A DNA stretch of 64,000 nucleotides from Phycisphaeraceae bacterium (GCA_039794205.1 JBDIVU010000001.1:223794-287793), one strand, 5' to 3'. Shown: positions 2,391 through 50,583, counted from the first letter of the stretch. Made by a program: numbers and translations. The notes: generated by a model from the sequence alone, not told the origin.

Positions 2391-2516
2391 CGGACGCCTG
2401 ACCTGAGCGAAGCGGTGGTCGGGGTCGCTGCGCGAGCGCACGGGCGAGACGCCCGTGCCACTGTTCGCGCCCGTGCCACTGTTCAAGCCCGTGCCACTGT
2501 TCAAGCCCTTGCCACC
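2391..2516. repeat. Composite palindromic repeat: leader module CGGACGCCTGACCTGAGCG..GGTCGGGG, hairpin GCGCACGGGCGAGACGCCCGTGCCACTG, then 3 tandem ~18-bp units (TTCAAGCCCGTGCCACTG)
   Basis: Direct reading. The same leader module recurs at 11025-11060 and the same hairpin at 10 or more other loci. It lies in the 300-bp gap between the ECF sigma and anti-sigma genes. Confidence 0.8.
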
Positions 2517-2593
2517 CCGCCGCCTCCCCATCTCCCCTCTGTCTCACTCCGTTTTCCTCTGCGTTCATCCCCTGACCCGATCGGAGCGACGCG

Positions 2594-3214
2594 ATGACTG
2601 TTGACCATGAGGACATCCTGATCTGCCGCATCGTCGATCGCGAGGCGTCGGACGCCGACTGGGCGGAAATCGAACTGCTCGCCGCGGGCGACCCCGGCGT
2701 CTGGCGTCGGCTGGCGGTCGCGGAGCGCGAGCACGCCGCGTTGACCGCGGGTGTGAGCGAGGCTCTTCTCGCCGCCGACCGCGTCGATCTGCCGCGCGTC
2801 GCGATCGAAGCGACGCACCGCTTCCACGCGCGCTGGCGAGCCTGGGGCGGTTGGGCCGTCGCGGCCCTGGTCGCGCTCGCCTGGGCGACGATGCAAGGCG
2901 TCATGCCCGCGTCGCGCACGCCCGGCGGACAGTCAGCGGGGCTGAATTGGGCGAACCTATCGCCCGATCAGGCGTTCGATCAATATCTGACACGCGGGAT
3001 CGAGGAAGGACGGGTGCTCGCGGAACTGCCCACGGTCATGGTCGAGGCACGCCCGACCGACGCCGGCGACGCGATCGAGATCACCATCATGCGCCGAGTC
3101 ATCGAGCGAACAACAGTCCGAGGCGCCTACAGCGTGGGCACCGACGACGCCGGCCGCGTCCGCCTCATCCCCGCTGTCACCGTCAGAACCGCCGCCGACG
3201 GCACGCCCCTCTGA
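2594..3214 (+). CDS. Putative anti-sigma factor (single-pass membrane protein)
   Basis: Lies immediately downstream of the ECF sigma. Cytoplasmic N-terminus, one TM helix (WGGWAVAALVALAWA) and a periplasmic C-terminal domain, the usual anti-sigma architecture. No sequence motif beyond this topology. Confidence 0.55.
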   Translation: MTVDHEDILICRIVDREASDADWAEIELLAAGDPGVWRRLAVAEREHAALTAGVSEALLAADRVDLPRVAIEATHRFHARWRAWGGWAVAALVALAWATMQGVMPASRTPGGQSAGLNWANLSPDQAFDQYLTRGIEEGRVLAELPTVMVEARPTDAGDAIEITIMRRVIERTTVRGAYSVGTDDAGRVRLIPAVTVRTAADGTPL

Positions 3215-3219
3215 ACGCC

Positions 3220-4443
3220 ATGACGCACGAGGTAATTAATATGATTTCAACGGAACGGAACCGCCGCCGGTCGTGCGCGGGCCGGGCTTTCATCGCCGCG
3301 CTCCTGACCCTCGCGCCGATCGGCGTCGCGGCGGGTCAGCCCGCGCGGACCGCCGGCGTCGCGCGCGCAGCGTCCGCGTCGATCGCGGAGTTCGCCACGC
3401 CCGAAGGCCTGCTCGTCGTTCGGCTCGAATCCGGCCGGCCCGTTGTCACGCTCGGCGGTTCGGCGCTGCCGGAATCCCGGCTCCGCGTCGAAGGCGACAT
3501 GCTCGTCGTCACGAACGCCGACGGCGCGCCCCTGATCCGGCTTAATCACGCGCTCTTCCTTCCCAACGCCCCCGACGCCCCCGCCGCGCCCGTTTTTCCC
3601 GCGACCCGCCGGGTCATCGGCGTCGTCACCAACCCGGCGCCCGCGGATCGGCTCGGCGCGCTCAAACTCGATCGTATAGACCGTATAGACGCGGCGTTGC
3701 TGATCGAGTCGGTCGTCCCCGATCTGCCCGCCGACCGCGCCGGGCTTAAACCGGGCGACCTGGTGCTGCGGGTCAACGGCGCCTCGCCCGCGACGATCGA
3801 ACTCCTCCGCGAATCACTGGCGAAAGTCGGCGCGCAGCCCGTGCGTCTCGATATCGCCCGCAGCGGATCGATCGAAACATTCGAGGTCACCCCCGTAGAT
3901 GAGCCGATCGCCGCGGAGTTCTCCTTCACACCGCTGCCCGCCTCGGCGCCCCGCGCGCGTGAACGCGAACGCGAAGTCGCCGACAGGAACATCGAGATCG
4001 AGCGACGCTTGCAGACCGCCGCGATCGAGGCTCTCCGCACCCAGGCGATGTCGGAACGGCTCGAGAAGGAAATGGAACGTCTGGCGTCGCGCGGGGCTTT
4101 GTCCGAGGCCCGTCGCGCGGACCTCGAACGCGCCGTCCGCGAAGCCGCCGAGGCTATCCGCACCATCGAAATGAAGTTTGATTTCGAAATGCCCGAGATG
4201 CCCAACGTCCGCATCCTCCGCGAGGACGGGCAGAGCGTGGCGATCTTCACCCCCGGGGCGCGCGGCGTCGGCGGCGGGCCCCGGACGCCGCCCGAACAGA
4301 CGCCCGGAGCCTCGCGGTTCGAACAGATCGAGTCGCGCATCGCCAGGCTCGAACAGATGCTCGAAACCATCCTCGGCGCGCTCGTCCCGGCGCCGAGAGC
4401 GACCGAACCAACAGATAACTCGAAAAAGACGCCGGGCGGCTGA
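3220..4443 (+). CDS. Secreted PDZ-domain protein with a coiled-coil C-terminus
   Basis: Signal peptide (RAFIAALLTLAPIGVAAGQ), PDZ-like segment (GLKPGDLVLRVNG), Glu/Arg-rich coiled-coil tail ending in RIARLEQMLETIL. The alternative ATG at 3241 is equally plausible. Confidence 0.6.
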   Translation: MTHEVINMISTERNRRRSCAGRAFIAALLTLAPIGVAAGQPARTAGVARAASASIAEFATPEGLLVVRLESGRPVVTLGGSALPESRLRVEGDMLVVTNADGAPLIRLNHALFLPNAPDAPAAPVFPATRRVIGVVTNPAPADRLGALKLDRIDRIDAALLIESVVPDLPADRAGLKPGDLVLRVNGASPATIELLRESLAKVGAQPVRLDIARSGSIETFEVTPVDEPIAAEFSFTPLPASAPRAREREREVADRNIEIERRLQTAAIEALRTQAMSERLEKEMERLASRGALSEARRADLERAVREAAEAIRTIEMKFDFEMPEMPNVRILREDGQSVAIFTPGARGVGGGPRTPPEQTPGASRFEQIESRIARLEQMLETILGALVPAPRATEPTDNSKKTPGG

Positions 4444-4557
4444 ACGCCGTGCGTCGCTGAGATTGTCGGATCGTCAATCAATCGCCGTGCGGGTGGCCGG
4501 CGGGAACACTGGGATCCGGGCGTGACGCCCGGCCCGCAACCACACGGAGGCCTCATC

Positions 4558-5781
4558 ATGTACCGATTCACCGCAGTGGCGCTGCTCGCGCTGTCCGCCG
4601 GGCACGCGCTCAACGCACAGGAGCAGAAGTCCGAAGCCCGCATCATCGTCGCGGCGCCCGATGCCGGCGCCAGGGGCGAAGGCAACGTCGAGCGTCGCAT
4701 GTTCCGCATCGGCGCCGGGGCGGACTCGAAGAACGACAACCGCGTCGTTCTCATCGGGCCCGACGGCAAGACCGTGGAAGAGTTCGTCGCCGACAGCGTC
4801 GCAGCGTCCGACCAGCCGGGCGAGCGTCGCGCCGTCATCCGTCGCGGCCCAGGCGCGGGCGCGCACGGCGGGGGAGATCAGAAAGCCGAGAAGAAAGGCG
4901 AAGTCCGCGTCGTCATCACCGGACCCGACGGGATCAAGGCGGAATGGACCACCGGCGGCTCAGGACGCGCTCAGGGCGTAGTGAAAGACGGCAAACGCTC
5001 CGTCAAAGTTGTCATCGAAGAAAACGGGCAGACACACGTGTTCGACGGCGACGACATTGCATCACTTGAGTTCCTGCCCGATTCAGTGCGCAAGTGGATG
5101 CACGCCGACGGCGACGGGCCTCGCATGCTCCGTTTCTTCCGTGACGGCGCCGACGGCGCCGACGGCCCGGCCGGCGCGGCGGGCGCGTTCCGATTCCGCA
5201 GCGGCGAAGGCGACGGCGACGGCTTCCAATGGCAGAAGCACGTCGAACAACTCCAAAAACAACTCGAAAGGCTTAACTTTAACTTTGATTTCGACTTCGA
5301 CACAGACTCGATCATGGAATCTGTTCACAAGGCCCTCGCCGACGCGCTCAAGAGCAGCGGCCTGAGCGGCGAAGACCGCGAGAAGATCACCAAGGCGCTC
5401 GAAGGCCTCCGTCGCGACGGCGATCGCGGCCGAGGCCCGGGGCAAGGCCAGATGCGCGGTTTCATGCAGCCCGGCCAGCCCGGCGAAGGCGCCATGCCCG
5501 AGGCAGTCCGCGAACGCATGGAAGCAATGCGCGAACGACTCGCCCTGCGTGAACAGCCGCAGCGGGAGCGCGCCGAGGTCGAGCGTCGCCGGGCCGAGGA
5601 AACTATCCGCGAGCGTGAAAACGTCGTCCGCGAGCGCTTCCGCGCCCGCGAGCGTGAGCAGGCCCACGCGCCCACGCCCCCGGCGCCGCCCGCCGGCGAC
5701 ACGGACGCCCGGATCCAACGGCTCGAAGAGCGTCTCGAACGCATCGAACGGATGCTCGAACGGCTCCTGCCCCGCTCCTGA
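4558..5781 (+). CDS. Secreted hypothetical protein (Gly/Asp-rich, coiled-coil C-terminus)
   Basis: Signal peptide MYRFTAVALLALSAGHALNAQ. The C-terminus RIQRLEERLERIERMLERLL is paralogous to the C-terminus of the preceding gene. Confidence 0.55.
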   Translation: MYRFTAVALLALSAGHALNAQEQKSEARIIVAAPDAGARGEGNVERRMFRIGAGADSKNDNRVVLIGPDGKTVEEFVADSVAASDQPGERRAVIRRGPGAGAHGGGDQKAEKKGEVRVVITGPDGIKAEWTTGGSGRAQGVVKDGKRSVKVVIEENGQTHVFDGDDIASLEFLPDSVRKWMHADGDGPRMLRFFRDGADGADGPAGAAGAFRFRSGEGDGDGFQWQKHVEQLQKQLERLNFNFDFDFDTDSIMESVHKALADALKSSGLSGEDREKITKALEGLRRDGDRGRGPGQGQMRGFMQPGQPGEGAMPEAVRERMEAMRERLALREQPQRERAEVERRRAEETIRERENVVRERFRAREREQAHAPTPPAPPAGDTDARIQRLEERLERIERMLERLLPRS

Positions 5782-7944: not shown

Positions 7945-8047
7945 GGGTGGCAAGGGCGTCCCGCCCGTGCGCGAACCATACCCAATGGCACGGGCGTCCC
8001 GCCCGTGCAGCGCAACCGGTGGCACGGTCGTCCCGCCCGTCATTATC
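7945..8047. repeat. Three tandem hairpin-repeat units (reverse orientation: CAATGGCACGGGCGTCCCGCCCGTGC..)
   Basis: Direct reading. The palindrome core GCACGGGCGGGACGCCCGTGC is shared with the other arrays. Confidence 0.8.
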
Positions 8048-8117: not shown

Positions 8118-8146
8118 AAGCCCAGGGATGAAATCCCTGGGCTTTG
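8118..8146. terminator. Type-1 palindrome AAAGCCCAGGGATgaaATCCCTGGGCTTT (11-bp GC-rich stem, A-tract/T-tract flanks); putative bidirectional intrinsic terminator / REP-like element
   Basis: Perfect inverted repeat seen directly. Seven near-identical copies occur in the window, 6 of them at gene 3' ends. Here it follows the M61 peptidase gene. Confidence 0.45.
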
Positions 8147-11024: not shown

Positions 11025-11228
11025 GTCGGACGCCTGACCTGAGCGGAGCGAAGGTCGGGGTGGATGCTCGATTCACCGCTGAGGCGCAGCGAGCGCAGAG
11101 AGGGAAGAGTTGAGGTGGCTTCGCGCGGGCAGGACGCCCGTGCCACTGTTTCTTAATAAGACGGACGGGACGCCCGTCCCACGGTTGCTTAGTCCCTCTC
11201 CCCCCGGGAGAGGGCCGGGGAGAGGGAC
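11025..11228. repeat. Composite repeat: leader module (11025-11060), hairpin GCAGGACGCCCGTGCCACTG (11123-11148), palindrome GGGACGCCCGTCCC (11165-11180), type-3 palindrome TCCCTCTCCCC..GGGGAGAGGGA (11192-11228)
   Basis: Direct reading. The modules are shared with 2391-2516, 48690-48731 and 50543-50583. Confidence 0.75.
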
Positions 11229-11271: not shown

Positions 11272-11299
11272 AAAGCCCAGGGATTTATCCCTGGGCTTT
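11272..11299. terminator. Type-1 palindrome AAAGCCCAGGGATttATCCCTGGGCTTTT; putative bidirectional terminator between the convergent STK and gatB genes
   Basis: Perfect inverted repeat followed by TTTT. It sits between convergent genes. Confidence 0.5.
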
Positions 11300-11344
11300 T
11301 GTCGTGTTAGGTGAAGCGTTTGATACAAGTCAGACTTAACGTCA

Positions 11345-11437
11345 CGGCTCGGAGAGCCGTGCCACCCTGGAGCCGTGCCACCCTGGAGCCGTGCCACCCT
11401 GGAGCCGTGCCACCCCTGAGCTGTGCCACCCCGGGGC
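11345..11437. repeat. Palindrome CGGCTCGGAGAGCCG followed by 4-5 tandem 16-bp units (GGAGCCGTGCCACCCT)
   Basis: Direct reading. Shares the GCCGTGCCAC core with the hairpin family. It abuts the gatB stop codon. Confidence 0.8.
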
Positions 11438-18519: not shown

Positions 18520-19401
18520 ATGATTGAACGCCGCGATCTCGCCCGACGCATCGACCACACCTTGCTCAAGCCCGAAGCGACCGAGGCGGACGTGCGCGCG
18601 CTCGTCGCTGAGGCGCTCGGGCACGGGTTCGCGGCGGTTTGCGTCAATCCGGTCTTTGTGCCGCTGGTCAGGGGGCTGCTGGATGACGGTTCGCGCACGG
18701 GCGGGACGCCCGTGCCACTGGGTAATGGTTCGCGCACGGGCGGGACGCCCGTGCCACTGGGTAATGGTTCGCGCACGGGCGGGACGCCCGTGCCACTGGG
18801 TGACGCTTCGCGCACGGGCGAGACGCCCGTGCCACTGGGGATGGCGCCCGTGCCACTGGGTGGGGCGCCGGCGCTCTGCACGGTCGCGTCGTTCCCACTA
18901 GGCGCGGCGACTGTGATGCAGCGCGCCATCGAGGCGACGCAGTCCGTCAAAGCCGGCGCCGAGGAGATCGACCTCGTCGCGTGGCTGCCGCGGCTGATCG
19001 CGCGCGACGCCGCCGGGCTGCGCGGCGATCTCATCGAGACGGTGCGCGCCGTTCGCGCCGCCCGCCCGTCGTGCGTCGTCAAGGTCATAATCGAGTCCGC
19101 GGCGTTGCGGGCCGCAGCGTCGAGCGATGACGAGTTCGAAGCCATGATCGCCGCTGCCTGTGCCGCGTCGCGCGAAGCCGGGTGCGATTACGTCAAGACC
19201 TCGACCGGGTTCCACCCCGCCGGCGGTGCGACGATCGAAGCGGTCCGGCTTATGAAAAAGCACGCGGGCGGGCTGAAGGTCAAGGCGTCCGGCGGGATCC
19301 GCGACTACGCCACCGCGTCCGCGATGATCGACGCCGGCGCCGACCGCGTCGGCGCGTCCGCGTCGGTAGCGATAGTCGCGGCGGCGCCGGCGTCGATCTG
19401 A
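18520..19401 (+). CDS. deoC: Deoxyribose-phosphate aldolase carrying an in-frame ~58-aa insertion encoded by a hairpin-repeat array
   Basis: DeoC blocks HTLLKPEAT, VCVNP, CTVASFPLGA and the Schiff-base region YVKTSTGF are intact. Between VRGLLDD and APALCTV the sequence reads GSRTGGTPVPLGN x3 plus a degenerate copy, which is the translation of the 39-bp repeat units. Confidence 0.8.
   Translation: MIERRDLARRIDHTLLKPEATEADVRALVAEALGHGFAAVCVNPVFVPLVRGLLDDGSRTGGTPVPLGNGSRTGGTPVPLGNGSRTGGTPVPLGDASRTGETPVPLGMAPVPLGGAPALCTVASFPLGAATVMQRAIEATQSVKAGAEEIDLVAWLPRLIARDAAGLRGDLIETVRAVRAARPSCVVKVIIESAALRAAASSDDEFEAMIAAACAASREAGCDYVKTSTGFHPAGGATIEAVRLMKKHAGGLKVKASGGIRDYATASAMIDAGADRVGASASVAIVAAAPASI
18688..18863. 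repeat. Four 39-bp tandem units (GGTTCGCGCACGGGCGGGACGCCCGTGCCACTGGGTAAT) plus a partial unit, inside the deoC ORF
   Basis: Direct reading. The period of 39 bp equals 13 codons, so the reading frame is preserved. Confidence 0.85.
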
Positions 19402-20516
19402 TCGAGCGCCCAGCGAACCGCGGGCACACACACCGCGTCCCCGAGCGCGAAGAGCATCGCGTCCTCGCCGATCCCCGCAGGGATCGTGTCGCCGGCGCCT
19501 TGCAGCCGCATGCACTCTCTCGCTGTGAGATGGCGGACGCGCATCACGCCGAGGCCGAGTTCTACGAGGATCTGCTTGGCGCTCCCGCCTTTGGGCGTGC
19601 GCAGACAGCCCGCGACGCCGTCGAACCGCAGTTCCGCGACCGAGCGTTTGACGCCCGCGATCGCGCGGACCCGGCGGAACGCCGTGGCGTGAGTGACGGC
19701 GCCGGCGTCGCGGCGTTTATTAAGTTCCGCTAGATGGTTCGGATGCGCCTGATTAATAAAATAAGTTACGCGCTCGGCGCTCCACCACCGCGGAGAGTCC
19801 GCGTCGATCGGCTCGACGATGTCTTCAATAGTCGTGCCGCGCGCAGGCAGCGGCGGGAGGTCGCGCGCGTGCCAGACGAGATCGGGCGCTGCGCGCATCG
19901 CAGCGATGACGCCCGCGTGGCGGGCTTCGGTTGGCTCGAGCGTCAAGGGGTCCGCGGGCGTCGGCGCCGACGGGTCGTCGAGCCTGGTGGCGATCAGGAA
20001 CAGCCGGGGGCGGGATTGCGGCGTGAAGCGCTCGGCGTTCACGCGCAGCGCGTCCACGCCGAACCCGATCTCGTTGAGCGCCGCGACAAGAGCGCGGAAG
20101 TCCCGCCCGCTGTGGCTCGACAACAACCCCGGCACATTTTCCAGGAACACCCAGCGCGGGCGAGCCGTCTGCGATGTCTGACGCAGAAGTTCCAGCACGC
20201 GCCAGACCGCGCCCGACTGACCGGCGTGGATCCCCGCGCGCCCGCCCGCAAGGCTCAGGTCCGTGCACGGGAACGACGCGGTCCACAGTTCGCAAGGCGG
20301 GATGTCGCCCGGGGCGACCTCGGCGACGTCGCGCGTGTCGAGGTGATCGTCGCCGGGATGGAGCGCGCGGTAGATCGCGGCTTTGGCGGGGTCGATGTCG
20401 TTGGCGTAGGCGACGGTCCATCGGCGTCGGGCGCGCGGGGATTCGAGCGCGGCGCGGACGAGTCCCATGCCCGCGAAGAACTCCGCCGCTGTGCCGCTGC
20501 CCGGATGGATCGCCAT
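19305..20516 (-). CDS. DNA (cytosine-5)-methyltransferase (Dcm-like); no cognate restriction enzyme nearby
   Basis: Motif I FFAGMGL, PC motif SFPCTDLSLAGG, ENV motif FLENVPGLL, motif VIII QSRPRLFLIA. ATG at 20514-20516 (MAIHPGSG..). The 3' end overlaps deoC convergently by about 97 bp. Confidence 0.78.
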   Translation of the reverse strand: MAIHPGSGTAAEFFAGMGLVRAALESPRARRRWTVAYANDIDPAKAAIYRALHPGDDHLDTRDVAEVAPGDIPPCELWTASFPCTDLSLAGGRAGIHAGQSGAVWRVLELLRQTSQTARPRWVFLENVPGLLSSHSGRDFRALVAALNEIGFGVDALRVNAERFTPQSRPRLFLIATRLDDPSAPTPADPLTLEPTEARHAGVIAAMRAAPDLVWHARDLPPLPARGTTIEDIVEPIDADSPRWWSAERVTYFINQAHPNHLAELNKRRDAGAVTHATAFRRVRAIAGVKRSVAELRFDGVAGCLRTPKGGSAKQILVELGLGVMRVRHLTARECMRLQGAGDTIPAGIGEDAMLFALGDAVCVPAVRWALDQIDAGAAATIATDADAPTRSAPASIIADAVA

Positions 20517-20579
20517 GCCTGGGAGCGTACCCGACCGGCGACGCCGCGACACGGGCGCCGCGACGAGTAGGATGCAGCG

Positions 20580-23309: not shown

Positions 23310-23324
23310 TGGTGCGCTGCGCCG

Positions 23325-23355
23325 AAAGCCCAGGGATGAAATCCCTGGGCTTTGG
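23325..23355. terminator. Type-1 palindrome GAAAGCCCAGGGATgaaATCCCTGGGCTTTG between convergent genes
   Basis: Perfect inverted repeat located 16 bp after the P-type ATPase stop codon. Confidence 0.5.
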
Positions 23356-23372
23356 TCGGGATTGAGGCTCAA

Positions 23373-23483
23373 CGGGCACGGCTCGGAGAGCCGTGCCACC
23401 CCGGAGCGCACGGGCGGGACGCCCGTGCCACTGTGAAACCGCGCCACTGTGAAACCGTGCCACTGAGAAGTTGTGCCACCCTG
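23373..23483. repeat. Hairpin-repeat array: CACGGCTCGGAGAGCCGTG palindrome, GCGCACGGGCGGGACGCCCGTGCCACTG, then 2 short TGAAACCGYGCCACTG units
   Basis: Direct reading. Confidence 0.8.
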
Positions 23484-30884: not shown

Positions 30885-30999
30885 GCCGGCGTGTCCGATC
30901 GACGCCCGGGCGGGACATGCGGAGCGGACACATGAAAGGGAGTATCCGCGAGCGGGAATAACTGTCGCCCGGGAACGAGGTTCCGGGCAAAATGCGTAC

Positions 31000-31026
31000 A
31001 AAGCCCAGGAATGAAATCCCTGGGCC
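31000..31026. terminator. Type-1 palindrome AAAGCCCAGGaATgaaATCCCTGGGCC (one mismatch)
   Basis: Follows the dockerin-protein gene. Confidence 0.4.
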
Positions 31027-31066
31027 TGGAGTGTGGTTCTCTCAGCGGGCGGGGCGGAGCACGGGC

Positions 31067-31160
31067 GGGACGCCCGTGCCACTGGGGATGGGGTGGCACG
31101 GCTCTCCGAGCCGTGTTCGCACGGGCGGGATGCCCGTGCCACTGGGGCCGTGCCGCTGGG
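31067..31160. repeat. Hairpin-repeat array (2 units plus the palindrome CACGGCTCTCCGAGCCGTG)
   Basis: Direct reading. Confidence 0.8.
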
Positions 31161-31219
31161 GCGGGCGGCGTCGGGCCGGGTAGTGTGTGGTGGACTGACT
31201 GAAGAAAAGGAGGCGGACT

Positions 31220-32782: not shown

Positions 32783-32814
32783 TCCGGGGATCGAGCGAGG
32801 GTTCACGCAACTGC

Positions 32815-32955
32815 GCCGGCGCACGGGCGGGACGCCCGTGCCACTGGGCTGTTCGCGCACGGGCGGGACGCCCGTGCCACTGGGCTGTTCGCGCACGGGC
32901 GGGACGCCCGTGCCACTGGGCTGTTCGCGCACGGGCGAGACGCCCGTGCCGCTGT
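32815..32955. repeat. Four tandem 39-bp units GGGCTGTTCGCGCACGGGCGGGACGCCCGTGCCACTG
   Basis: Direct reading. Confidence 0.85.
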
Positions 32956-33208
32956 TGCTTACTCCGTCATCCCCGTGGGGCAGGCGTCCCTGCCTGCCCG
33001 GGGACAGCATCAATAAATAACACTCAACAAGGCGGGCACGGAGGCCCGCCCCACGGGGTTTGGGCGGGTGCGACGGCCCGCCTTACGGTTGATCTTGCGG
33101 GCGCGGAGGCATGCACGCACGATGGTTGCGTGACCGTTTTCCCCTTGGGAGTGGGGTGTGGGGATGGGGAATTACGTTGGTGTGCGTGAATCGCGCTTTC
33201 AGCGCTGC

Positions 33209-33235
33209 GAGGCCCAGGGATAAATCCCTGGGCTT
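33209..33235. terminator. Type-1 palindrome AGGCCCAGGGATaaATCCCTGGGCTTT fused to the next hairpin array
   Basis: Its 3' arm continues directly into the first 39-bp unit. Confidence 0.4.
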
Positions 33236-33336
33236 TCGCGCACGGGCGGGACGCCCGTGCCACTGGGGCTTTCGCGCACGGGCGGGACGCCCGTGCCACT
33301 GGGGCTTTCGCGCACGGGCGGGACGCCCGTGCCACT
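33233..33336. repeat. Three tandem 39-bp units TTCGCGCACGGGCGGGACGCCCGTGCCACTGGGGCT
   Basis: Direct reading. Confidence 0.85.
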
Positions 33337-33588
33337 GCATAATTGCGGGTTCGGGCCGATAGTAGATGAGTCTGGAGCGAGAATTCGGGCAGGATGGGTG
33401 AACCCGAGCGTCCCCGCGGTCGATCTATCGACGGAGAACATGGTTCGAGTCGGCGGGAGCCGCCGAGGGGTGAGTATGCATTGACAGCGCGCGGGCGGGT
33501 GATACCGTGCGGCGCTGCGAAGGGTGAAGCACCCGTGGGGGCGTCCGGGCGGGCGGGGGCACGCCGACACGCGAGCGAGGAGTCAGCC

Positions 33589-35160
33589 GTGCAGGCAGGA
33601 ATAAGCGGTGGACAACGACGGGCGGGCGCTCTGGTCCGTGTCTCGGGCGCGTCGATCGGATTGGCGCTGGTCGCCGGTACGATGGGGGGCTGCCGGAACG
33701 ATCTGAACTCGTTCTTTGATCCGAGCGTCGTCGGGCGATGGGAGTACACGCCGACGGTCGTCCCGATCCTCGAACGGCTGGACGTGATAGAGGACGATTC
33801 GGGCGATTTCGTTGAAACGTCCGAGGTCATGCCCGAGGATCTGATCCCGGAGCCCGCGGCGTACGAGATCGGCGCGGGCGATCAGGTGCGGATCATCATC
33901 TTCGACTTCCTGGTGGCGAACCAGCCGTCGGAGTTCATCCGCATCGTGGACCCGCGGGGGATGCTGGACCTGCCTCAGATCGGCGAACTGCCGGTGCGGG
34001 GGCTGACAGCCAAGCAGATCGAGTCGATGATCGTCCGGTTGCTGCGCGAGCAGGGGATCATTCAGGACGCGCTCGTGACGGCGGAGTCGCTGTCCCGGCA
34101 GGACGCCACGTTCACGGTGTACGGGTCGATCGCGCGAGTCGGGCGTTACGGGATCCCGAAGCCGAACTATCGGCTTCTCGATGCGCTGACGGACGCCGGG
34201 GGGACGGGCGTCCCCGTGCCTAGCATTTTCGTGATCCGGCAGGCGCCGTTGACTTCTGAGGTCTCGTCGGGTCTGGCGCCGATCCGGACGCCCGAGCCGA
34301 CCGAGCCGAGGCGTGACGACGGGGCCAATCTTGAGGATCTGATCGACCGTCTGACCGAGCCGCCGAAAGGCGCCGAGCCGCCGTCACCCGGGGTTTTCGG
34401 CTCGGGTTCCGGTTCTGCGCTGGGCCTGACGCGCCAGCCGACGGAGCCGGGTCAGCCCGATCGCCCGCCGATCGACCTGCCCGCGGACAGGCCCGCGGCT
34501 CAGCCCGATCCCGGCGAGCCGCCGGCGGGCCAGTGGGTGTTCATCGACGGGCGATGGGTCCGGGTGGCTGCGGGTGAGGCTGTGCAGGCGGGCGCCCCGG
34601 CGGGCGGGCTGGCGGAGGGGCCTGATCCTCTATCCGCCGCCGGCGCCGACGCGAGTGATCTTGTCACGCAGCGGGTGATCGAGATCCCGCTCCGTCCGTT
34701 GCTTCAGGGCAACGCCGCATACAACATCGTGATCCGTCCGGGTGATGCGATCCGAGTCCCGCCTCCGGATCAGGGTCTGGTTTATATGTCCGGGCCTGGT
34801 ATAGCCCGGCCGGGCGTGTTCAACCTCCCGGTGTTCGGCAGGCTGACTCTTACCAAGGCCGTCGCCGCTGCTGGCGGGCTGTCCCCGATCGGGATCCCCA
34901 ACCGGACGGACCTGACCCGGATGATCGGCGACGACCGCCAGGCGACGATCCGGCTCAACCTTCGGGCGATCTACGAAGGCTCCGAGCCGGACGTCTTTCT
35001 CAAGCCCGACGACGTGGTCAACGTGGGTACGACCTGGTGGGCCCAGCCGTTGGCCATCATCCGCAACGGCTTCCGGGTGAACTACGGGTTCGGGTTCCTG
35101 CTCGACCGCAACTTCGGCAACGACGTGTTCGGCGCCCCGCCGACGAACTTCAGGAACTGA
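33589..35160 (+). CDS. Polysaccharide export protein, Wza/OPX family (PES + SLBB domains); lipoprotein
   Basis: Lipobox LVAGTMGGC, Poly_export-like segment YEIGAGDQVRIIIFD, and SLBB-like segments (VYGSIARVGRYGI; YNIVIRPGDAIRVP). The GTG at 33589 with an upstream GAGGAG is the proposed start; the true start is uncertain. Confidence 0.65.
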   Translation: MQAGISGGQRRAGALVRVSGASIGLALVAGTMGGCRNDLNSFFDPSVVGRWEYTPTVVPILERLDVIEDDSGDFVETSEVMPEDLIPEPAAYEIGAGDQVRIIIFDFLVANQPSEFIRIVDPRGMLDLPQIGELPVRGLTAKQIESMIVRLLREQGIIQDALVTAESLSRQDATFTVYGSIARVGRYGIPKPNYRLLDALTDAGGTGVPVPSIFVIRQAPLTSEVSSGLAPIRTPEPTEPRRDDGANLEDLIDRLTEPPKGAEPPSPGVFGSGSGSALGLTRQPTEPGQPDRPPIDLPADRPAAQPDPGEPPAGQWVFIDGRWVRVAAGEAVQAGAPAGGLAEGPDPLSAAGADASDLVTQRVIEIPLRPLLQGNAAYNIVIRPGDAIRVPPPDQGLVYMSGPGIARPGVFNLPVFGRLTLTKAVAAAGGLSPIGIPNRTDLTRMIGDDRQATIRLNLRAIYEGSEPDVFLKPDDVVNVGTTWWAQPLAIIRNGFRVNYGFGFLLDRNFGNDVFGAPPTNFRN

Positions 35161-45676: not shown

Positions 45677-46045
45677 ATGCCCGAACGTTACATCGACGAC
45701 TTCCGCCGACGCCGCGCCGACGGCCAGACGCGCCTCCTCAATACCGAACACCTCGGCATAAAACGTTTCCTTCGCCTCGACAGCGATTCTTACTCCGACC
45801 GATCCGCCGAGGGTCGGCTCGACGCGCGCACCAAGGAACTGCTCGGCCTGGTCGCGTCCGCAGTCCTCCGCTGCGACGACTGCATCGCCTACCACGTCGA
45901 GCAATCCGTCGCGCAGGGCTGGACAAAGGAAGAAATCGAAGACGCCCTGAACGTCGCGCTGGTCGTCGGCGGCTCGATCACGATCCCCCACCTCCGCCGA
46001 GCGCGCATCGCGCTGGACGAACTCCTCGAAGAACGCGATAGGTAG
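45677..46045 (+). CDS. Carboxymuconolactone decarboxylase / AhpD-like family protein
   Basis: CxxC-containing AhpD core LRCDDCIAYH and a four-helix pattern. ATG at 45677. Confidence 0.6.
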   Translation: MPERYIDDFRRRRADGQTRLLNTEHLGIKRFLRLDSDSYSDRSAEGRLDARTKELLGLVASAVLRCDDCIAYHVEQSVAQGWTKEEIEDALNVALVVGGSITIPHLRRARIALDELLEERDR

Positions 46046-46251
46046 CGCCGATTGCGCTTGTCACAGTAATTGGTCACAATCAATACCCGACCATCGGCCG
46101 GATCACCGGAGCGTTCGCCCGGGCTGGATTTGGATAAACACGGACAATTGTATTGATTCCGCGCCGGGCTTATGGGACGATGCGCGGGTCGGCGCCTCCC
46201 CGCGCAGCGTGCCCGGGGCGCGACCTGCACGGTCCTTCCCAGGGAGAGAAA

Positions 46252-48135
46252 TGATGAACCGAAGAATCGCCGCCGCCGCGGGTCTGGCGCTGTCATGCGC
46301 CGCAGCCCCCACGCACACGCTCAGTTCACGTACCGGACGGTTGCGCAGAGCGGGGTCGCGGGGTTTACAGACTTTGACATCGCGCTCATCGCGAACAACG
46401 GTCTGACCTCCATGAAAGCCACGCAAGGCTCCGAAGGCGTCTGGGCTGAAAACGGCGTGCCCGGCAATCTGCTGACTCTTGCCAAGGTCGGAGTCGACAG
46501 CAATTTCGGATGCCAGAGCGAACCCACGGAGGCAATTACAAGGCCCTCTATGAATTCGGCCGGTCTAGTGACACTCGCCGCAATGGAGGATGGGCTCATT
46601 TTCAGTGCAGGCGCATGCAGCAATGAGTGCGCATCATCAACTGCGGTACAAACATGGTCAGGAATTCTCCGCTGGAATCCTGGCAGCCCTGCTCCCTCTG
46701 TAGCGATGCAGGTCAGCGACTCGGTTCAACACGGCGGCGTGACAATCCCTTTCTATCCCGCGGGCTCTCCCGGGTTCTTCGATGGTTTCGTGCCGAGAAT
46801 CGGCAACAGCGGCAGTGTTACCGTGTACGACAAATTCTGTCTGAACGTGCCCGGAGCCCCCAGAGCGCCACGATCGTTAGCCCGCTGACCGGCGGCCTGG
46901 TAGTGCATGCGGCCACTGGCGAAACTGGCATTTTGGATTTACCCGCGACCATGTCCAATCCCTCCATCAACGGCGCGGCGTCGGCGAACACAGTCTTCTA
47001 CGCACGACAGGCTCTCGACACCGACATGGTCTCCAACGACCCCAACAACGTCGACTTCGGTATCTATTTTACATCGGCGGGTTCCGCCACCAGGGTCTTC
47101 GTCGAAGGCGATATCGCTCCGGTTCCCTTCGAGGAGGAGCCGATGGATCCGACGGACCCATTCCCGTTCCCGGATCCAGGCCCGGATTACCGCTTCTCAC
47201 AACTCGGCTTCCACCCCGCGATCAACGACGCCGGTCAGGTCGCGTTCTACGCCCGGATTGCAGAGCGCGTGCAGATCGGCTCTGACATCCAGTACATCAA
47301 CCCCAGCGGCGGGATCTGGTCCGGACTCGGCGCTAACTATGGCACGTACCGCCTGGTCGCCATGCACGGCGACCAAGCCCCCGGCCTGCCCGCCGGGGTG
47401 GTCTTCTCCGGCTTCGGCGACCCTGTCATCAACGCGACCGGCCAACTCGCCTTCGTCGCGTATCTCGCCGGGGCCGGCGTCAACGCTCTAAACGACTTCG
47501 CGGTCTATCGCGCGACCCCCGACGGCCAGGGCGGCTTCACCCTCGAGCTGATCGCCCGCGAAGGGTTCTCCGCGCCGGGCACAATCGGTTTTTATGCCGG
47601 CGATCTGCCCAACGGCAGCCCGTTCCGCGATCCCTTCATCAACGCCTCCGGCCAGGTCGCGTTCCAGGCGAACTGGCACTCCAATCCAGGTTCGTTCGGG
47701 TCCGGCGGCCCTGGAATCTGGCTGAATACACCAGGCGTCGGCAACGTCGCCGTGGCAGCGCGTAGATTGTTCGGAAAAGGGATCCAAACGATCTCGCTTG
47801 GTTCAGGGGAAGCGTCAGGCGCCGGGCAGTCTAAAGCCGCTTCTTCCGGTGGCCAGGACGGCCGCGGCACTGCTCTCAACGACAACGGGGAAGTGGTTTT
47901 CGTAGTTCGACTTCAAGCGATTCCGGAGCTCGACCGGCGCGTCGTCGTCGCCTCACACCCGTCGCCGATCATGCTCGCGACCGACTTCAACGCCGACGGC
48001 TTCACCGACTCGGGCGATCTGGCGCTCCTCTTCGAAGCCTTCGACACCCAGAACAGCCGCTACGACATCAACGCCGACGGCGTTATCGACATGCGCGACG
48101 TCAGCGTCGTCCTGAACGCGATGACTTCACGCTAA
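46252..48135 (+). pseudogene. Secreted repeat protein (x-G-Q-V-A-F repeats) with a C-terminal dockerin-like pair, disrupted by two frameshifts
   Basis: Signal peptide MMNRRIAAAAGLALSCAAAP is in frame 0 (46252). The body continues in frame 2 (to 46888) and then frame 1 (to 48135). Both frame switches coincide with CCCCC tracts (~46303 and ~46853). The C-terminus reads DFNADGFTDSGDLALLF..DINADGVIDMRDVSVVLN. Confidence 0.5.
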
Positions 48136-48159
48136 GACGCTACCCCCAACGGCTGGAAC

Positions 48160-48631
48160 ATGCCGATAGATAGTGATGACACACTTATTCAAGCAGCCAC
48201 GGATGGCGGGAATCTCCCCGGCAGCGGGGCCGCCCGCCGTCCGGGCCGTGCCCGACGATCTCCGGCGCGGCTTCGTCGTCCCGATTCTTAAGAAGCACGA
48301 CCCGGCGCCGCGCACCGGCTAACCACGCATCGACCAGCGCAACGCCCTCGACGGGATAATCTTCATTCCGCGCAGCGGGTGTCAATGGAACCTCCTGCCC
48401 GGGGAGTTCGGCTACGACTCGTCGGCGCATCGAACATTCCTACGCCGGGCGCGGCTGGGCGTTTTCCAGAAACTCCGGGCAGCGCCTGTTGACTATGCGC
48501 TTCGGCTGAGCCTGGTCGAGTTCGAGTATCAGTCGGCGGACTGTTCGATGGGCAAGCCGCGCTTCGGGGGGATCGAGTCGGCAAAGACCCCACTGATCGG
48601 GCCGAGCCGGGCGCGAAGCGCGGCGCGCTGA
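48160..48631 (+). mobile_element. IS5-family (DUF4096 / IS427-group OrfA-like) transposase remnant with an in-frame TAA; no DDE catalytic half
   Basis: Own translation gives ..LRRGFVVPILKKHDPAPRTG*PRIDQRNALDGIIFIPRSGCQWNLLPGEFG..AHRTFLRRARLGVFQKL. This is the conserved helix-turn-helix module ..RTGCxWRxLP.. / ..F.RW... of IS4/IS5 transposase N-termini. TAA at 48320-48322. Confidence 0.55.
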
Positions 48632-48689
48632 CCGACGCCGACGGGTATATGCGCATCTCGCATCTTGCGCAAATAGCGCCCAGCACCGT

Positions 48690-48818
48690 TCGTCCCTCTC
48701 CCCGACCCTCTCCCAGGGGAGAGGGGGTCAGAACCAGCGACGCGAGCACAACCAGTGGCACGTGCGTCCCGCCCGCGCGCGTTCAGCCGCGGTGGCGCGG
48801 GCGTCCCGCCCGTGCAGG
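48690..48818. repeat. Type-3 palindrome (GTCCCTCTCCCCGACCCTCTCCCAGGGGAGAGGGGGTCAG) followed by 2 hairpin units in reverse orientation
   Basis: Direct reading. Confidence 0.8.
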
Positions 48819-48951
48819 ATCATCCACGCTGCGCAGGCCTCCCCGTCCGACGTTGAAACACCCCGCCGCTCGAACCGCCCGCCCGCCACCTCCGCTGCCT
48901 GTCCCACCCCGGGTTCCGGTACGATGACGCTTCTAACCCACGGAGGGCGCC

Positions 48952-50157
48952 ATGCCTATCGACCCGCCCCGCGGCGCCGCAGTCATCGGTCAGGCCGGCG
49001 GCCCGACCGCTGTAATAAACCAATCTCTCGTCGGCGTCGTCGAAGGACTTCGCGCCGGCGGACTGATCGGCAAAGTCCTCGGCGCCAGGCACGGCGTCCG
49101 CGGCATGATCAACGACGACTTCGCCGATCTCACCGACCTCTCACCCGACAAACTCGGCCGCGTCGCCGCCACTCCATCCGCCGCCCTCGGCTCGACGCGC
49201 GACAAACCCGACGCCGCGTACTGCGAACGCATCTTCCAGAAACTCCGCGCCCGCGAGGTCCGCTACTTCTTCTACATCGGCGGGAACGACTCGTCCGACA
49301 CCTGCCGGATCGTCAACGATCTCTCGACCGCTGCGGGTTATGAACTCCGCTGCTTCCACGTCCCGAAGACCATCGACAACGACCTGATGGAGAACGACCA
49401 CACGCCGGGCTATCCCTCCGCGGCCCGCTTCGTCGCCAACGCCTTCACCGGCGACAACCTCGACAACGCCTCCCTGAAGGGAATTAAGATTAATATCGTG
49501 ATGGGTCGGCACGCCGGGTTCCTCACCGCCGCGAGCGCCCTGGCGCGACGCCGCGACACCGACGGCCCGCACCTCATCTACCTCCCCGAGCGCGACTTCG
49601 ACCCCACCGCGTTCGTCGCCGACGTGGACCGCGTATTCACGGAGCACGGGCGCTGCCTCGTCGCGGTCAGCGAGGGCGTCCACAACGCCGCGGGCGAGCC
49701 GATCAGCGCCCTCATGAGCGGGCTTAACGAACGCGACGCGCACGGGAACGTGCAACTGTCAGGCTCGGGCGCGCTCGGCGACTGGCTTGCGAACCTGCTC
49801 CGCGTCGAGATGACCCCCGCCGGGGGCAAGCCGCCCCGGGTCCGCGCCGACACGTTCGGCTATCTCCAGCGCTGCTACCCGGACGCCAGCCCGATCGATC
49901 AGCGCGAAGCCCGTGCTGTTGGTCGCAAGGCGGCCGAAGTCGCGCTCCTCGGCGACCTTGACGGGTCGATCGCCATCAAGCGTGTCCGCAGTGAACCCTA
50001 CGAAAGCCGATACGAACTCGTCCCCCTCGTCGCCGTCGCGGGCAAGACGCGCGTGATGCCCGAGGCCCACCTCGCCGCTGGCCCGGACGTCACGCCCGCG
50101 TTCCTCGATTACCTCCGCCCGCTCGTAGGCGACCTGCCGACCGTAGAACACCTCTGA
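48952..50157 (+). CDS. pfp: Pyrophosphate-dependent phosphofructokinase family protein (PFK/PFP)
   Basis: GGPTAVINQS, GGNDS, PKTIDNDL and MGRHAGF blocks. Confidence 0.82.
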   Translation: MPIDPPRGAAVIGQAGGPTAVINQSLVGVVEGLRAGGLIGKVLGARHGVRGMINDDFADLTDLSPDKLGRVAATPSAALGSTRDKPDAAYCERIFQKLRAREVRYFFYIGGNDSSDTCRIVNDLSTAAGYELRCFHVPKTIDNDLMENDHTPGYPSAARFVANAFTGDNLDNASLKGIKINIVMGRHAGFLTAASALARRRDTDGPHLIYLPERDFDPTAFVADVDRVFTEHGRCLVAVSEGVHNAAGEPISALMSGLNERDAHGNVQLSGSGALGDWLANLLRVEMTPAGGKPPRVRADTFGYLQRCYPDASPIDQREARAVGRKAAEVALLGDLDGSIAIKRVRSEPYESRYELVPLVAVAGKTRVMPEAHLAAGPDVTPAFLDYLRPLVGDLPTVEHL

Positions 50158-50180
50158 CTTAGAAATTGTGAAATTGAAAA

Positions 50181-50282
50181 CGGCACAGGCGCAACAGCGG
50201 CACAGGCGCAACAGTGGCACGGGCGTCCCGCCCGTGCGCGAACAGCTCCAGTGGCACGGGCGTCCCGCCCGTGCATTAGCGG
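50181..50282. repeat. Hairpin-repeat array in reverse orientation (CAGTGGCACGGGCGTCCCGCCCGTGC x2, preceded by degenerate CGGCACAGGCGCAACAG units)
   Basis: Direct reading. Confidence 0.8.
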
Positions 50283-50478
50283 TGAACTTTCATCCCCGCG
50301 CCCAACAACCGGGCCTAGGACGGCCCGGCTCGGCCCCCAAATCGGCACAGCCGCGGAGTGGCGCCGGCTCCCGGGGTGGCACGGCTCACCGTCCCGTCTC
50401 TGTTGAGCGCATCACGCCCGGACCCTCGCTCCGCTCAGCAGAGGCGCCGTCCCGCGCCTTTGCTGCATATCGCAACTT

Positions 50479-50508
50479 CAAGCCCAGGGATTTCATCCCT
50501 GGGCTTTG
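50479..50508. terminator. Type-1 palindrome CAAGCCCAGGGATttcATCCCTGGGCTTTG
   Basis: Lies in the pfp - GH57 intergenic region. Confidence 0.45.
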
Positions 50509-50542
50509 GGCGCATCGCGCGCGAACTCCGCAACGCGCCGGA

Positions 50543-50583
50543 TGTCCCTCTCCCCAACCCTCACCCGAGGGAGAGGTGGTCAG
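50543..50583. repeat. Type-3 palindrome GTCCCTCTCCCCAACCCTCACCCGAGGGAGAGGTGGTCAG
   Basis: Third copy of the TCCCTCTCCCC..GGGAGAGG module. Confidence 0.8.

Follow-up and report, generated by a model that had tools for sequence, protein, structure and literature searches.

In Escherichia coli, BIMEs are built from alternating Y and Z REPs that lie in opposite orientation, are joined by defined linker motifs and bind IHF and gyrase; an ability to bind IHF, DNA gyrase or Pol I also counts toward their definition. Rickettsia palindromic elements (RPEs), which are 100–150 bp in length, carry a CGTC tag. For REPINs, the inverted doublet has been described as the unit of gain and loss (Bertels & Rainey 2011). 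For the GTAG-19 REPs of the verrucomicrobium Opitutus terrae, Additional file 3 of the original study lists the peptides GTGVSPV, GTGVPPV, (H)GRDARAT, VARASRP and TGGTPVP (Di Nocera, De Gregorio & Rocco 2013, BMC Genomics 14:522, PMC3733652), and GTAG-19 is probably the GTGG-tagged family that is numbered GTAG-20 in the main text of the same paper.

The window analyzed here, a 64-kb stretch of DNA from a Phycisphaerae-type planctomycete, contains a short palindromic repeat, T2, the full unit of which is TTCGC-GCACGGGCG-RGA-CGCCCGTGC-CACTGGG, along with a variant, T2' (CACGGCTC-GGA-GAGCCGTG-CCACCC). The opposite strand of T2 reads GTGG-hairpin-GCGAA, in which GTGG is a variant of the GTAG tag, and essentially all T2/T2' units carry this (CA)GTGG tag. 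The hairpins have a 9-bp G+C-rich stem and a 3-nt loop, with a short GAA tail opposite the GTGG tag, and their energies as single-stranded DNA are −12.4 to −13.2 kcal/mol (z of −3 to −4). Five of the six reading frames of T2 translate exactly into the peptides listed for the O. terrae family, and the identity of T2 with this family is inferred from these peptides. The two also share the GTGG form of the tag and an occurrence as singles, dimers and groups as well as inside ORFs, but they differ in host (a verrucomicrobium versus a planctomycete) and in the prominence of long head-to-tail arrays and half-unit satellites in our window.

By anchoring on the 3' arm and tag, we count 29 full T2-type units in the 64-kb window (25 T2, 3 T2' and 1 other variant) and approximately 14 half units, which adjoin the full ones. 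These are distributed over 11 loci, 10 of which are intergenic and one intragenic (in deoC). The pattern GCACGGGCG-NNN-CGCCCGTGC has 25 matches with up to two mismatches, compared with 0.05 expected, and the window contains 23 perfect hairpins with a GT[AG]G tag, compared with 0–3 in Markov shuffles. Three further modules are present: T1 in seven copies (8120, 11275, 23328, 29542, 31003, 33212 and 50482; 0 expected), T3 in three (11194 on the minus strand, 48694 and 50546) and a leader in two copies over 36 nt (2390 and 11026; 0 expected). The palindromic modules reported in an initial annotation of this DNA are thus real, with all counts far above chance, and they are arranged as follows:

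2390–2425, plus: leader copy 1, a weak hairpin with a T2 unit 12 nt downstream
2438–2515, plus: full T2 REP (2438–2461), then three half units (3' arm + CCAC + TGTTCAA, period 18)
7947–8040, minus: two reverse T2 REPs (plus-strand tag GTGG/ATGG) and a degenerate third unit, downstream of an M61 peptidase gene
8118–8144, unstranded: T1 palindrome with conserved flanks (ATATC.CGAC ... TTTG.GCGCATCGC)
11026–11061, plus: leader copy 2
11123–11182, plus: degenerate T2 (11123–11146) and a short-stem variant, GGACGGG-acg-CCCGTCC-CAC (11163–11182)
11194–11226, minus: T3 copy (CCCTCTCCCC / CCCTCTCCC / GGGGAGAGGG)
11273–11298, unstranded: T1 palindrome between convergent kinase and gatB genes
11343–11431, plus: T2' REP (CACGGCTC-GGA-GAGCCGTG-CCACCCTG), then a 16-bp satellite from its 3' arm and tag, 4.9 copies
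18688–18869, plus: four T2 REPs and one half unit, period 39 bp (13 codons), inside deoC
23326–23352, unstranded: T1 palindrome, 17 nt past the stop codon of a P-type ATPase gene
23375–23480, plus: T2' REP, T2 REP and 16-bp half-unit repeats (CCGTGCCACTGTGAAA)
29413–29527, plus: three degenerate T2 units (period 37) and a half unit, upstream of an aldehyde dehydrogenase gene (minus strand)
29540–29566, unstranded: T1 palindrome with loop TTC, in a divergent intergenic region
31001–31027, unstranded: T1 palindrome with one mismatch, also present at the orthologous position in a sister species
31059–31156, plus: T2, inverted T2' (31093–31117, minus), T2 and a half unit
32821–32952, plus: four T2 REPs, period 36
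32978–33050, unstranded: two tagged hairpins in inverted arrangement, each with a different stem from T2/T2', GTGG-GGCAGGC... (minus, 32978–32999) and GGCGGGC...-CCAC (plus, 33031–33050), both additional to those of the initial annotation
33210–33337, plus: T1 abutting three T2 REPs, period 36
48690–48728, plus: T3 copy
48755–48815, minus: two degenerate reverse T2 REPs, upstream of a PPi-phosphofructokinase gene
50181–50274, minus: two 17-bp half units, then two reverse T2 REPs, downstream of the phosphofructokinase gene
50371–50387, minus: remnant of a T2' unit
50480–50582, plus: composite of T1, a conserved linker and T3, with the same composite in the sister species (L006, 143–238)

The T2 arrays have periods of 39 (18688), 36 (32815), 36 (33233) and 37 bp (29411), which replace the 38–39 bp given previously. 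The spacers had been described as constant within an array and different between arrays. The first part holds, as the variable nucleotides are identical inside any one array, but the inter-hairpin DNA is mostly conserved REP flank (TTCGC on one side and CACTGGG on the other), and only 3–6 nt vary between arrays. The arrays are mostly head-to-tail, consisting of direct repeats of a single REP type with half-REP satellites, and inverted neighbors are found only at 31059–31142 and 32978–33050. The satellites, with repeats of 14–21 bp, are tandem copies of the 3' arm and tag of T2 or T2'; the 16-bp satellite at 11354–11431 (4.9 copies), which had been noted to share a core sequence with the modules, is derived in this way from T2'. 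In the 33233 array, the spacer GGGCTTTCGC includes the 3' end of the adjoining T1, which indicates local tandem duplication.

As with the REPs of E. coli, T2 is a short, G+C-rich hairpin with a 5' GT(A/G)G tag and, as described below for related genomes, a RAYT gene between inverted copies. The T2 arrays differ from BIMEs in being direct repeats of one type, with perfect 9-mer stems, 3-nt loops and a GTGG tag; a BIME in the E. coli sense, for which alternating orientation and two REP types are defining, is therefore rejected. Of the REP/BIME likeness drawn in the initial annotation, the REP half is right for T2/T2', on the strength of the defining tag, the match to a published family and the RAYT flanks in relatives, while the BIME half is not. 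T2 and T2' are genuine REPs of the GTAG superfamily with the GTGG variant of the tag; members of this superfamily are G+C-rich palindromes of 20–40 bp that fold into a stem-loop, have an unpaired tetranucleotide tag at one foot of the stem, and are abundant and mostly extragenic. The REPIN model of an inverted doublet that is gained and lost as a unit fits a 59-bp T2/T2' doublet (31.06–31.12 kb) that is absent from the sister species, and it fits the inverted pair at 32978–33050 too. Most copies in the window, however, are not doublets, and the two arms of the doublets have unlike stems, such that no single long hairpin is possible.

The 18688 array is not extragenic but lies within the deoC gene (18520–19401), which holds it as an in-frame 59-aa insertion. 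DERA structures align only to residues 1–57 and 117–288 of the deoC product, leaving the insertion unaligned. Like RPEs and other intragenic REPs, this is an in-frame palindromic insertion in a housekeeping gene that keeps the frame, but unlike in RPEs, what is inserted consists of 39-bp REP units in tandem. There are no stop codons in any of the six T2 reading frames, and thus, arrays in multiples of three can persist in genes, as in deoC. A presence/absence comparison with a related genome, which the initial annotation had envisaged, is informative here: the sister species has one T2 unit in its deoC ortholog, compared with 4.5 in our window, and lacks the 59-bp doublet, while T1 at 31001 is kept.

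We find no RAYT or Y1 gene in the window by tblastn with nine RAYT/TIRYT queries (best E of 0.9) and no transposase domain in 30 window ORFs by Pfam and NCBIfam scans, in agreement with the initial annotation. RAYT genes are reported to be single-copy, and their absence from a 64-kb window is therefore expected. In related genomes, REPtrons, in which a RAYT lies between inverted REPs, are found with exact T2 at four loci (L034, L051, L131 and L135), and one-base-pair T2 variants flank a RAYT at two more (L047, and L050, where the tag is the canonical GTAG). Within the T2-associated RAYT clade, 63 of 80 loci have GT[AG]G-tagged hairpins (177 hairpins with 48 different stems), and the tag in these REPtron flanks is GTGG in 116 cases and GTAG in 61. 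Tagged hairpins at 80 metagenomic loci of this clade number 84 in 22 kb upstream and 83 in 22 kb downstream (~3.8 per kb each), compared with a density of 0.41 per kb beyond 400 nt, and the 5' tag predominates upstream and the 3' tag downstream. The T2-associated enzyme has 282 homologues named RayT or REP-associated tyrosine transposase with PF01797, keeps the HUH and Tyr motifs (MPDHVH and Y...NPV.AGL), and matches E. coli TnpA-REP (PDB 4ER8, E = 5.6e-6). As judged from its sequence, with the HUH motif, the catalytic Tyr and the Y1_Tnp fold all present, the enzyme adjoining T2 in relatives is a RAYT.

In at least 30 planctomycete ValRS clusters, the RAYT that has been seen with exact T2 flanks lies in frame inside the essential gene valS, at one conserved site and with 48–70% identity and intact catalytic motifs. 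In those relatives in which exact T2 copies flank the RAYT, valS contains the whole REPtron in frame. No report of this ValRS::RAYT arrangement was found in the literature searched. At four loci with ValRS-embedded REPtrons (L034, L131, L134 and L135; 8–24 kb of DNA each), we observe no dispersed REPs, and hence, the presence of this RAYT alone is insufficient for a REP-rich genome, which weighs against RAYT-driven spread as a full explanation. We tentatively raise the possibility, to which we give slightly less than an even chance, that T2 in this lineage is serviced by a valS-embedded RAYT domain between two translated T2 REPs rather than by a free-standing gene. The REP expansion in our window, with the deoC array as one part of it, would then be the trace left throughout the genome by a transposase that an aminoacyl-tRNA synthetase has domesticated as an insertion domain.

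The initial annotation had treated the three modules as one family. T1, however, lacks a GT[AG]G tag, being a symmetric palindrome between AAA and TTT, and no T1 flanks a RAYT among ~130 loci (L001–L135). T3 likewise has no such tag, its 3' flank being GGTCAG or GGTAAG depending on the copy, and it is not found beside a RAYT across the ~130 loci, with no T3-like hairpins in 80 RAYT flanks. T1 and T3 are palindrome families separate from T2. The fold of the leader module is weak (−8.2 kcal/mol, z of −1.3).

Taken together, it is likely that T2/T2' are RAYT-mobilized REPs of the GTAG superfamily in a Phycisphaerae-type planctomycete and that T1 and T3 are separate families sharing intergenic space. 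[quoted passage not shown] If T2 behaves as E. coli REPs do, its hairpin and tag would form on single-stranded DNA and be recognized and cut by the RAYT, an HUH/Y1 transposase of the IS200/IS605 superfamily that we infer to be encoded elsewhere in the genome between inverted T2 copies. New T2 copies may arise by two routes: insertion of single units or inverted doublets, such as the 59-bp T2/T2' doublet, and local tandem duplication of either whole units, giving the 36–39-bp arrays, or the 3' arm and tag, giving the 14–21-bp satellites. A RAYT would not classically be expected to produce head-to-tail arrays and half-REP satellites, which could result from transposase-free replication slippage. 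T1 would be a lineage-restricted perfect palindrome that is older than the local turnover of T2 and terminator-like in appearance, with T3 as a third hairpin family. Both would be found with T2 mainly through shared permissive intergenic regions, sometimes in fixed composites (T1-linker-T3).

An unlikely alternative is that the hairpins are kept mainly for work at the RNA level, as terminators, 3'-end stabilizers or sites for RNA-binding proteins, with the transposase link being historical only. Most repeat loci do lie downstream of at least one gene, and the hairpins are very stable, but T2 faces either way with respect to the gene upstream of it and is found in divergent promoter regions (2438 and 29413) and inside deoC, and no T2 unit has a U-tract. 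T1 has AAA/TTT flanks, a copy at 23326 that is 17 nt past a stop codon, and conservation at the orthologous site of the sister species; its stem, however, is followed by only TTT rather than the U-tract of ~5 or more of an intrinsic terminator, and a terminator scan of 22000–34000 flagged no T1 copy in that stretch. The hairpins match no Rfam family. Recognition by a RAYT accounts for a tag that is both conserved and asymmetric, and for the layout of the REPtrons, whereas termination does not. T1 may still act as a terminator in a high-G+C organism, and an RNA role is compatible with T2/T2' being REPs, possibly via exaptation.

Less probable again is that replication slippage alone, acting around the hairpin, has made the arrays and satellites as ordinary minisatellites, with no dedicated enzyme at work in this genome today. 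While slippage would explain the spacers that are identical within a locus, the copying of flanking T1 sequence in the 33233 array, the half-unit repeats of 14–21 bp and the altered copy number in deoC, it cannot place one 33-nt unit at 11 distinct sites within 64 kb, create an inverted T2/T2' doublet that the sister species lacks, or explain why other phyla have this sequence too. We consider it very improbable that the modules are MITEs or parts of MITEs, moved by a DDE transposase that recognizes terminal inverted repeats. A 17-bp perfect inverted repeat (2324–2340 / 2551–2567) encloses the leader and T2 locus, and a T2 in L042 is bracketed by a similar inverted repeat of the ACGCAGAG type, but the leader and T2 locus is the only one in the window bracketed in such a way, T2 units elsewhere have just the inverted repeat of their own hairpin, the window is without a transposase, and the tag and RAYT association fit REPs. 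Finally, the regular 36–39-bp periodicity might suggest a degenerate CRISPR array or an artefact of assembly, but either is scarcely credible, given that an independent Logan contig (L046) has 100% identity over 45964–50234, that the loci are common to the sister species (contig L038 has both T1 and T2 at the orthologous site), that the units also exist as singles and inverted pairs, that there are no unique spacers, as the initial annotation had concluded, the variable 3–6 nt being identical within an array, and that no cas domain was found among the scanned ORFs.

REPs are normally species-specific. Exact T2 followed by CACTG is nevertheless found at more than 45 loci in MAGs assigned to at least five phyla (Planctomycetota, Verrucomicrobiota, Acidobacteriota, Armatimonadota and Hydrogenedentota), frequently as inverted pairs. 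An identical 26-nt T2 in MAGs of five phyla is unusual for REPs and might reflect a constraint other than a transposase. T3 is likewise present across phyla.

The main hairpin repeat of the window, T2, is a REP with a GTGG tag. Together with the other palindromic modules that co-occur with it (T1, T3 and the leader), it sits where the initial annotation placed it, and all four counts are far above chance: the T2 hairpin has 25 matches at up to two mismatches against 0.05 expected in the window, while T1, T3 and the leader occur in 7, 3 and 2 copies, respectively, with an expectation of 0 for each. When copies from the window and from other genomes are aligned, the T2 unit reads TTC(GC)-GCACGGGCG-RGA-CGCCCGTGC-CAC(TGGG). 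On the opposite strand, this corresponds to (CA)GTGG-hairpin-GCGAA, in which a stem-loop follows a 5′ GTGG tag in the manner of a GTAG-type REP. Because conservation reaches past the hairpin, the inter-hairpin segment that had been described as specific to each array mostly belongs to the unit itself, and arrays differ from one another in only 3-6 nt of it. A stem variant, T2′ (CACGGCTC-GGA-GAGCCGTG-CCACCC), shares the tag, loop and outer stem of T2 and carries compensatory changes in the inner stem.

With the 3′ arm plus tag (CCGTGCCAC) as the anchor, we count 29 full T2-type units and about 14 adjoining half units (3′ arm plus tag) in the window; 7 further isolated one-mismatch matches to CCGTGCCAC lie inside genes and look like chance. 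Tandem Repeats Finder gives periods of 39 bp (18688), 36 bp (32819 and 33230) and 37 bp (29414), as well as short-period satellites of 14-21 bp. The short satellites repeat the 3′ arm plus tag in tandem and always adjoin a full unit on its tag side. The 16-bp satellite GGAGCCGTGCCACCCT, which had been noted for its shared core, is such a run of half units. The same pattern of a full unit followed by half units recurs in five loci from other genomes (L001, L012, L020, L023 and L026). In the window, a tagged inverted hairpin pair (GTGG/CCAC) at 32978-32999 and 33031-33050 has stems, GGCAGGC and GGCGGGC, that are unlike T2; their resemblance to REPs beside more distant RAYTs (REP-associated tyrosine transposases) of the clade suggests that the genome holds further REP subfamilies.

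REPs have been split into GTAG- and CGTC-tagged superfamilies, with a GTGG tag variant noted in Opitutus terrae (Di Nocera et al. 2013, PMC3733652). The residues listed in Additional file 3 of that study for intragenic O. terrae ‘GTAG-19’ REPs include GTGVSPV, GTGVPPV, (H)GRDARAT, VARASRP, GARASRP and TGGTPVP. HGRDARAT is the translation of GCACGGGCGAGACGCCCGTGCCAC, the reverse complement of GCACGGGCGAGACGCCCGTGCCAC encodes (S)GTGVSPV and VARASRP, and the deoC reading frame of a T2 array in the window encodes SRTGGTPVPLG. Since these encoded peptides coincide with the residues in that file, T2 is, as judged at the peptide level, of the same family as ‘GTAG-19’ or a very near relative. Neither the nucleotide strings nor the peptides encoded by the REPs gave a relevant match in our literature searches.

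A RAYT gene is absent from the window, as the initial annotation had stated: tblastn with the RAYT and TIRYT sequences from the PMC3733652 alignment gives a best E value of 0.9. The same queries detect a RAYT-like gene adjoining a T2 match in L034, a contig from another genome. Here, the gene lies between inverted REPs, an arrangement known as a REPtron, with a reverse GTGG-tagged T2 on its 5′ side and two forward T2 units on its 3′ side. The L034 RAYT domain has 282 homologues, with PF01797 and with source names of RayT or REP-associated tyrosine transposase, and it matches the E. coli TnpA-REP structure 4ER8. In the best homologues, the predicted N-termini (SGTGVSPV or STGILPV) and C-termini (HGQDARAT) are translated flanking REPs. 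At the DNA level, one-base-pair stem variants of T2 are found in L047-L049 (Phycisphaerales) and in L050, whose hairpins bear the canonical GTAG tag. The GTAG-tagged REPtron of L050 (3001-3762) interrupts a large gene beside a DUF499 gene.

A metagenome scan with the RAYT alignment yields 80 loci. In the 290-nt flanks upstream of the RAYT, a 5′ GT[AG]G tag is present on 58/106 perfect hairpins, and in the downstream flanks, a 3′ C[CT]AC tag is present on 56/111; more than 400 nt from the RAYT, about 5% of hairpins are tagged. Tagged hairpins occur in 63/80 loci (n = 177) with pyrimidine-rich loops and 48 inner stems, so it is the stem that varies along with the enzyme, whereas the tag and fold are conserved. 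The nearest relative (L051, 63% identity) is flanked on both sides by exact T2. Class 3 TnpA-Y1 enzymes, which have a CnGA foot and occur in Planctomycetes and Acidobacteria (Quentin et al. 2018), are ruled out as the partner of T2, given the GTGG tag and the RAYT-like nature of the flanking enzyme. T2 and T2′ are members of an already described REP family for which a RAYT partner can be identified. The likeness to REPs drawn in the initial annotation is correct for these two modules; the E. coli BIME organisation, to which the mosaics had been compared, does not apply to the repeats of the window.

With one genome per species searched, exact T2 followed by CACTG is found at no fewer than 45 loci. 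Among the matches listed, many of which are inverted pairs, most are from Phycisphaerae or other Planctomycetota, and the other hosts are Verrucomicrobiota, Acidobacteriota (Pyrinomonadaceae, Thermoanaerobaculia and Ca. Angelobacter), Armatimonadota (Fimbriimonadales) and Hydrogenedentota. Several matches lie on contigs of 100-800 kb and some lie amid much lower G+C, and thus neither mis-binning nor base composition explains the distribution. Nor are these elements carried by phage, as T1 is absent from the viral contigs searched and T2 occurs in them once. That a 26-nt REP is unchanged in MAGs assigned to five phyla points to horizontal spread of REP and RAYT as a pair or to unusually strong constraint. 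The novelty of the window itself is modest; the parts worth following are this cross-phylum identity and the embedding of a RAYT in valS.

In L034, the entire REPtron lies in frame within the ORF of a valyl-tRNA synthetase (ValRS), and the same fusion is found at several other places:

ValRS::RAYT fusions
L034, 3450-7265, minus strand: 1271-aa ValRS ORF containing the REPtron
L131, 6001-9783: ValRS::RAYT
L135, 8117-11992: ValRS::RAYT
L134, 10001-14044: ValRS::RAYT
L051-L053: metagenomic ValRS::RAYT loci
P0241-P0357: ValRS homologues, with or without the insertion

Among the best 120 ValRS clusters, 30 cover the L034 query over its full length (48-70% identity, 1220-1360 aa); they lie on contigs of up to 1.36 Mb, and 17/30 have a precomputed Y1_Tnp match. 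The insertion, carried by at least 30 planctomycete ValRS clusters, has an identical site in 16 aligned ValRS sequences, which falls between residues 364 and 378 by the numbering of Thermus ValRS (1GAX). The embedded RAYT has conserved HUH and Tyr motifs, and the linkers read SGTG(V/I)(S/P/L)PV on the N-side and HG(R/Q)DARAT on the C-side. Exact T2 hairpins are present at both RAYT junctions in the DNA of L131 and L135, and in L131 the RAYT also lies between direct repeats about 40 bp long; in L134, the stem differs from T2 and the tags are the same. One ValRS that is 92% identical (P0243) is without the RAYT insertion. Of the metagenomic RAYTs, the 3 closest to that of L034 are inside valS, while the other 77 are free-standing. 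Further tagged hairpins are absent from the 8-24 kb of DNA per locus at the ValRS-embedded REPtrons that we examined. Our literature searches, which combined RAYT with valyl-tRNA synthetase, tRNA synthetase and Planctomycetes, returned no report of this arrangement. The in-frame occurrence of a T2-flanked RAYT within valS in many Planctomycetota is one of two points of wider interest: if functional, the fusion would give a domesticated transposase a new means of securing its vertical inheritance, and would offer a natural setting in which to test how RAYTs affect their host. Gene callers also join other RAYTs of the clade to adjacent ORFs across stop-free REP linkers (L050 and P0005), and in P0005, the RAYT is joined to a Ham1 domain via an HGQDARAT linker.

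A REP array also lies within a gene of the window. The ORF at 18520-19401 encodes deoxyribose-phosphate aldolase (Pfam DeoC; PDB DERA matches at E = 1e-42), of which DERA structures cover only residues 1-57 and 117-288. The unmatched 59 residues correspond to nt 18691-18867, the span of the T2 array, and consist of SRTGGTPVPLGNG three times, then SRTGETPVPLG and MAPVPLGGA; a period of 39 bp amounts to 13 codons. The array at 18688 is therefore intragenic. The DeoC of the sister species (93% identical) has one unit, MRTVGTPVPLGGA, whereas the window has 4.5 T2 units. DeoC proteins elsewhere are mostly 227-250 aa, and a repeat-like insert is absent from this loop in 3/8 aligned sequences. Other homologues carry a GAGVSPV-like peptide (P0123) or a T3-like RGRGQGEG...GERQGE (P0163) in the same loop, which looks like a permissive surface site for repeat insertion. 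As read from its sequence, T2 is stop-free in all six frames, which explains the tolerance of such insertions. The odd-looking 293-aa DeoC is thus a normal aldolase with a REP-encoded 59-aa loop. Convergent to deoC is a long ORF for a C-5 cytosine DNA methyltransferase (19305-20828, minus strand); it overlaps both the deoC end and the ATPase gene start, which leaves its true start uncertain.

Turnover of the repeats is visible in the orthologous intergenic region at 31 kb, where the window and the sister species both have T1, a single T2 and a single half unit, and 59 bp found only in the window are a T2 with an inverted T2′. In the array at 33233, every spacer repeats the last bases of the adjoining T1 (GGGCTTTCGC), which indicates that the array expanded through local tandem duplication once T2 lay beside T1.

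T1 and T3 are palindrome families additional to the T2/T2′ REP family. T1 is a perfect palindrome with a 10-bp stem and AAA/TTT flanks (ssDNA energy of -14.5 kcal/mol, z of -6.6); it has no tag, and about 15 nt of flank are conserved in one subfamily. Its only occurrences found are in the window and in contigs of the sister species (L006, L026, L033 and L038). T1 lies downstream of at least one gene in 6/7 copies. Its T run spans only 3 nt, and a terminator scan of 22000-34000 flags none of the copies there. T3 consists of a copy of the 5′ arm followed by a hairpin (CCCTCTCCCC..CCCTCTCCC.GGGGAGAGGG) and also occurs in loci of Acidobacteriota, Armatimonadota and other Planctomycetota; our searches found no partner enzyme for it. 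A CGTC tag, seen in 2/3 window copies and absent in other genomes, was rejected for T3. A T1-linker-T3 composite at 50480-50582 appears again at L006 143-238. The leader forms a weak hairpin, and both of its copies lie upstream of a T2. All 7 T1 copies are in intergenic regions that also bear T2, which by a rough gene map is present in about 10/18 intergenic regions of at least 80 nt; as the repeats themselves lengthen these regions, the association of T1 with T2 is only suggestive.

The nearest public sequences are Logan contig L046, identical to the window over 45964-50234, and L038 (CAZTEE01, a contig of an ‘uncultured Phycisphaeraceae’ MAG), which is 88-91% identical over 29677-32787. G+C is 66-70% across most of the window, and the gene content is typical of planctomycetes or Phycisphaerae (TatC, an ECF sigma/anti-sigma/PDZ cluster, Ser/Thr kinase, GatB, P-type ATPase, an exosortase/PEP-CTERM polysaccharide cluster, dockerin/DUF7453 proteins and PPi-phosphofructokinase). 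The sole Rfam match at the gathering threshold over the entire window is a tRNA-Leu, and two repeat-rich regions searched at E ≤ 1 give one chance-level match. K-mer repeat catalogues (k = 11 and k = 14) are too noisy for use in DNA of 68% G+C. About 1.5 kb of the intergenic ‘structure’ of the window is REP-type DNA, selfish or domesticated, and gene callers are prone to extend or fuse ORFs across its stop-free hairpins. Lower G+C (0.59-0.63 versus about 0.68 elsewhere) is seen at 46000-48000, 52000-54000 and 56000-60000, which encode dockerin/DUF7453, prepilin-type N-methyl and FG-GAP proteins; these stretches and the exosortase/polysaccharide cluster at 33.4-45.6 kb are free of repeat modules.

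T2 is nearly always in plus orientation over 2.4-33.3 kb, apart from 7.9 kb and 31093, and in minus orientation at 48.7-50.4 kb. The orientation thus flips between 33 and 48 kb, and the GC skew changes sign near 35 kb; over these few loci, the pattern could reflect a strand-specific, replication-linked insertion bias. Finally, a perfect 17-bp inverted repeat (2324-2340, TGAACGCAGAGGAAAAC; 2551-2567, GTTTTCCTCTGCGTTCA) encloses a locus of leader, T2 and half unit, and a similar ACGCAGAG-rich inverted repeat encloses T2 in an Isosphaeraceae contig (L042).
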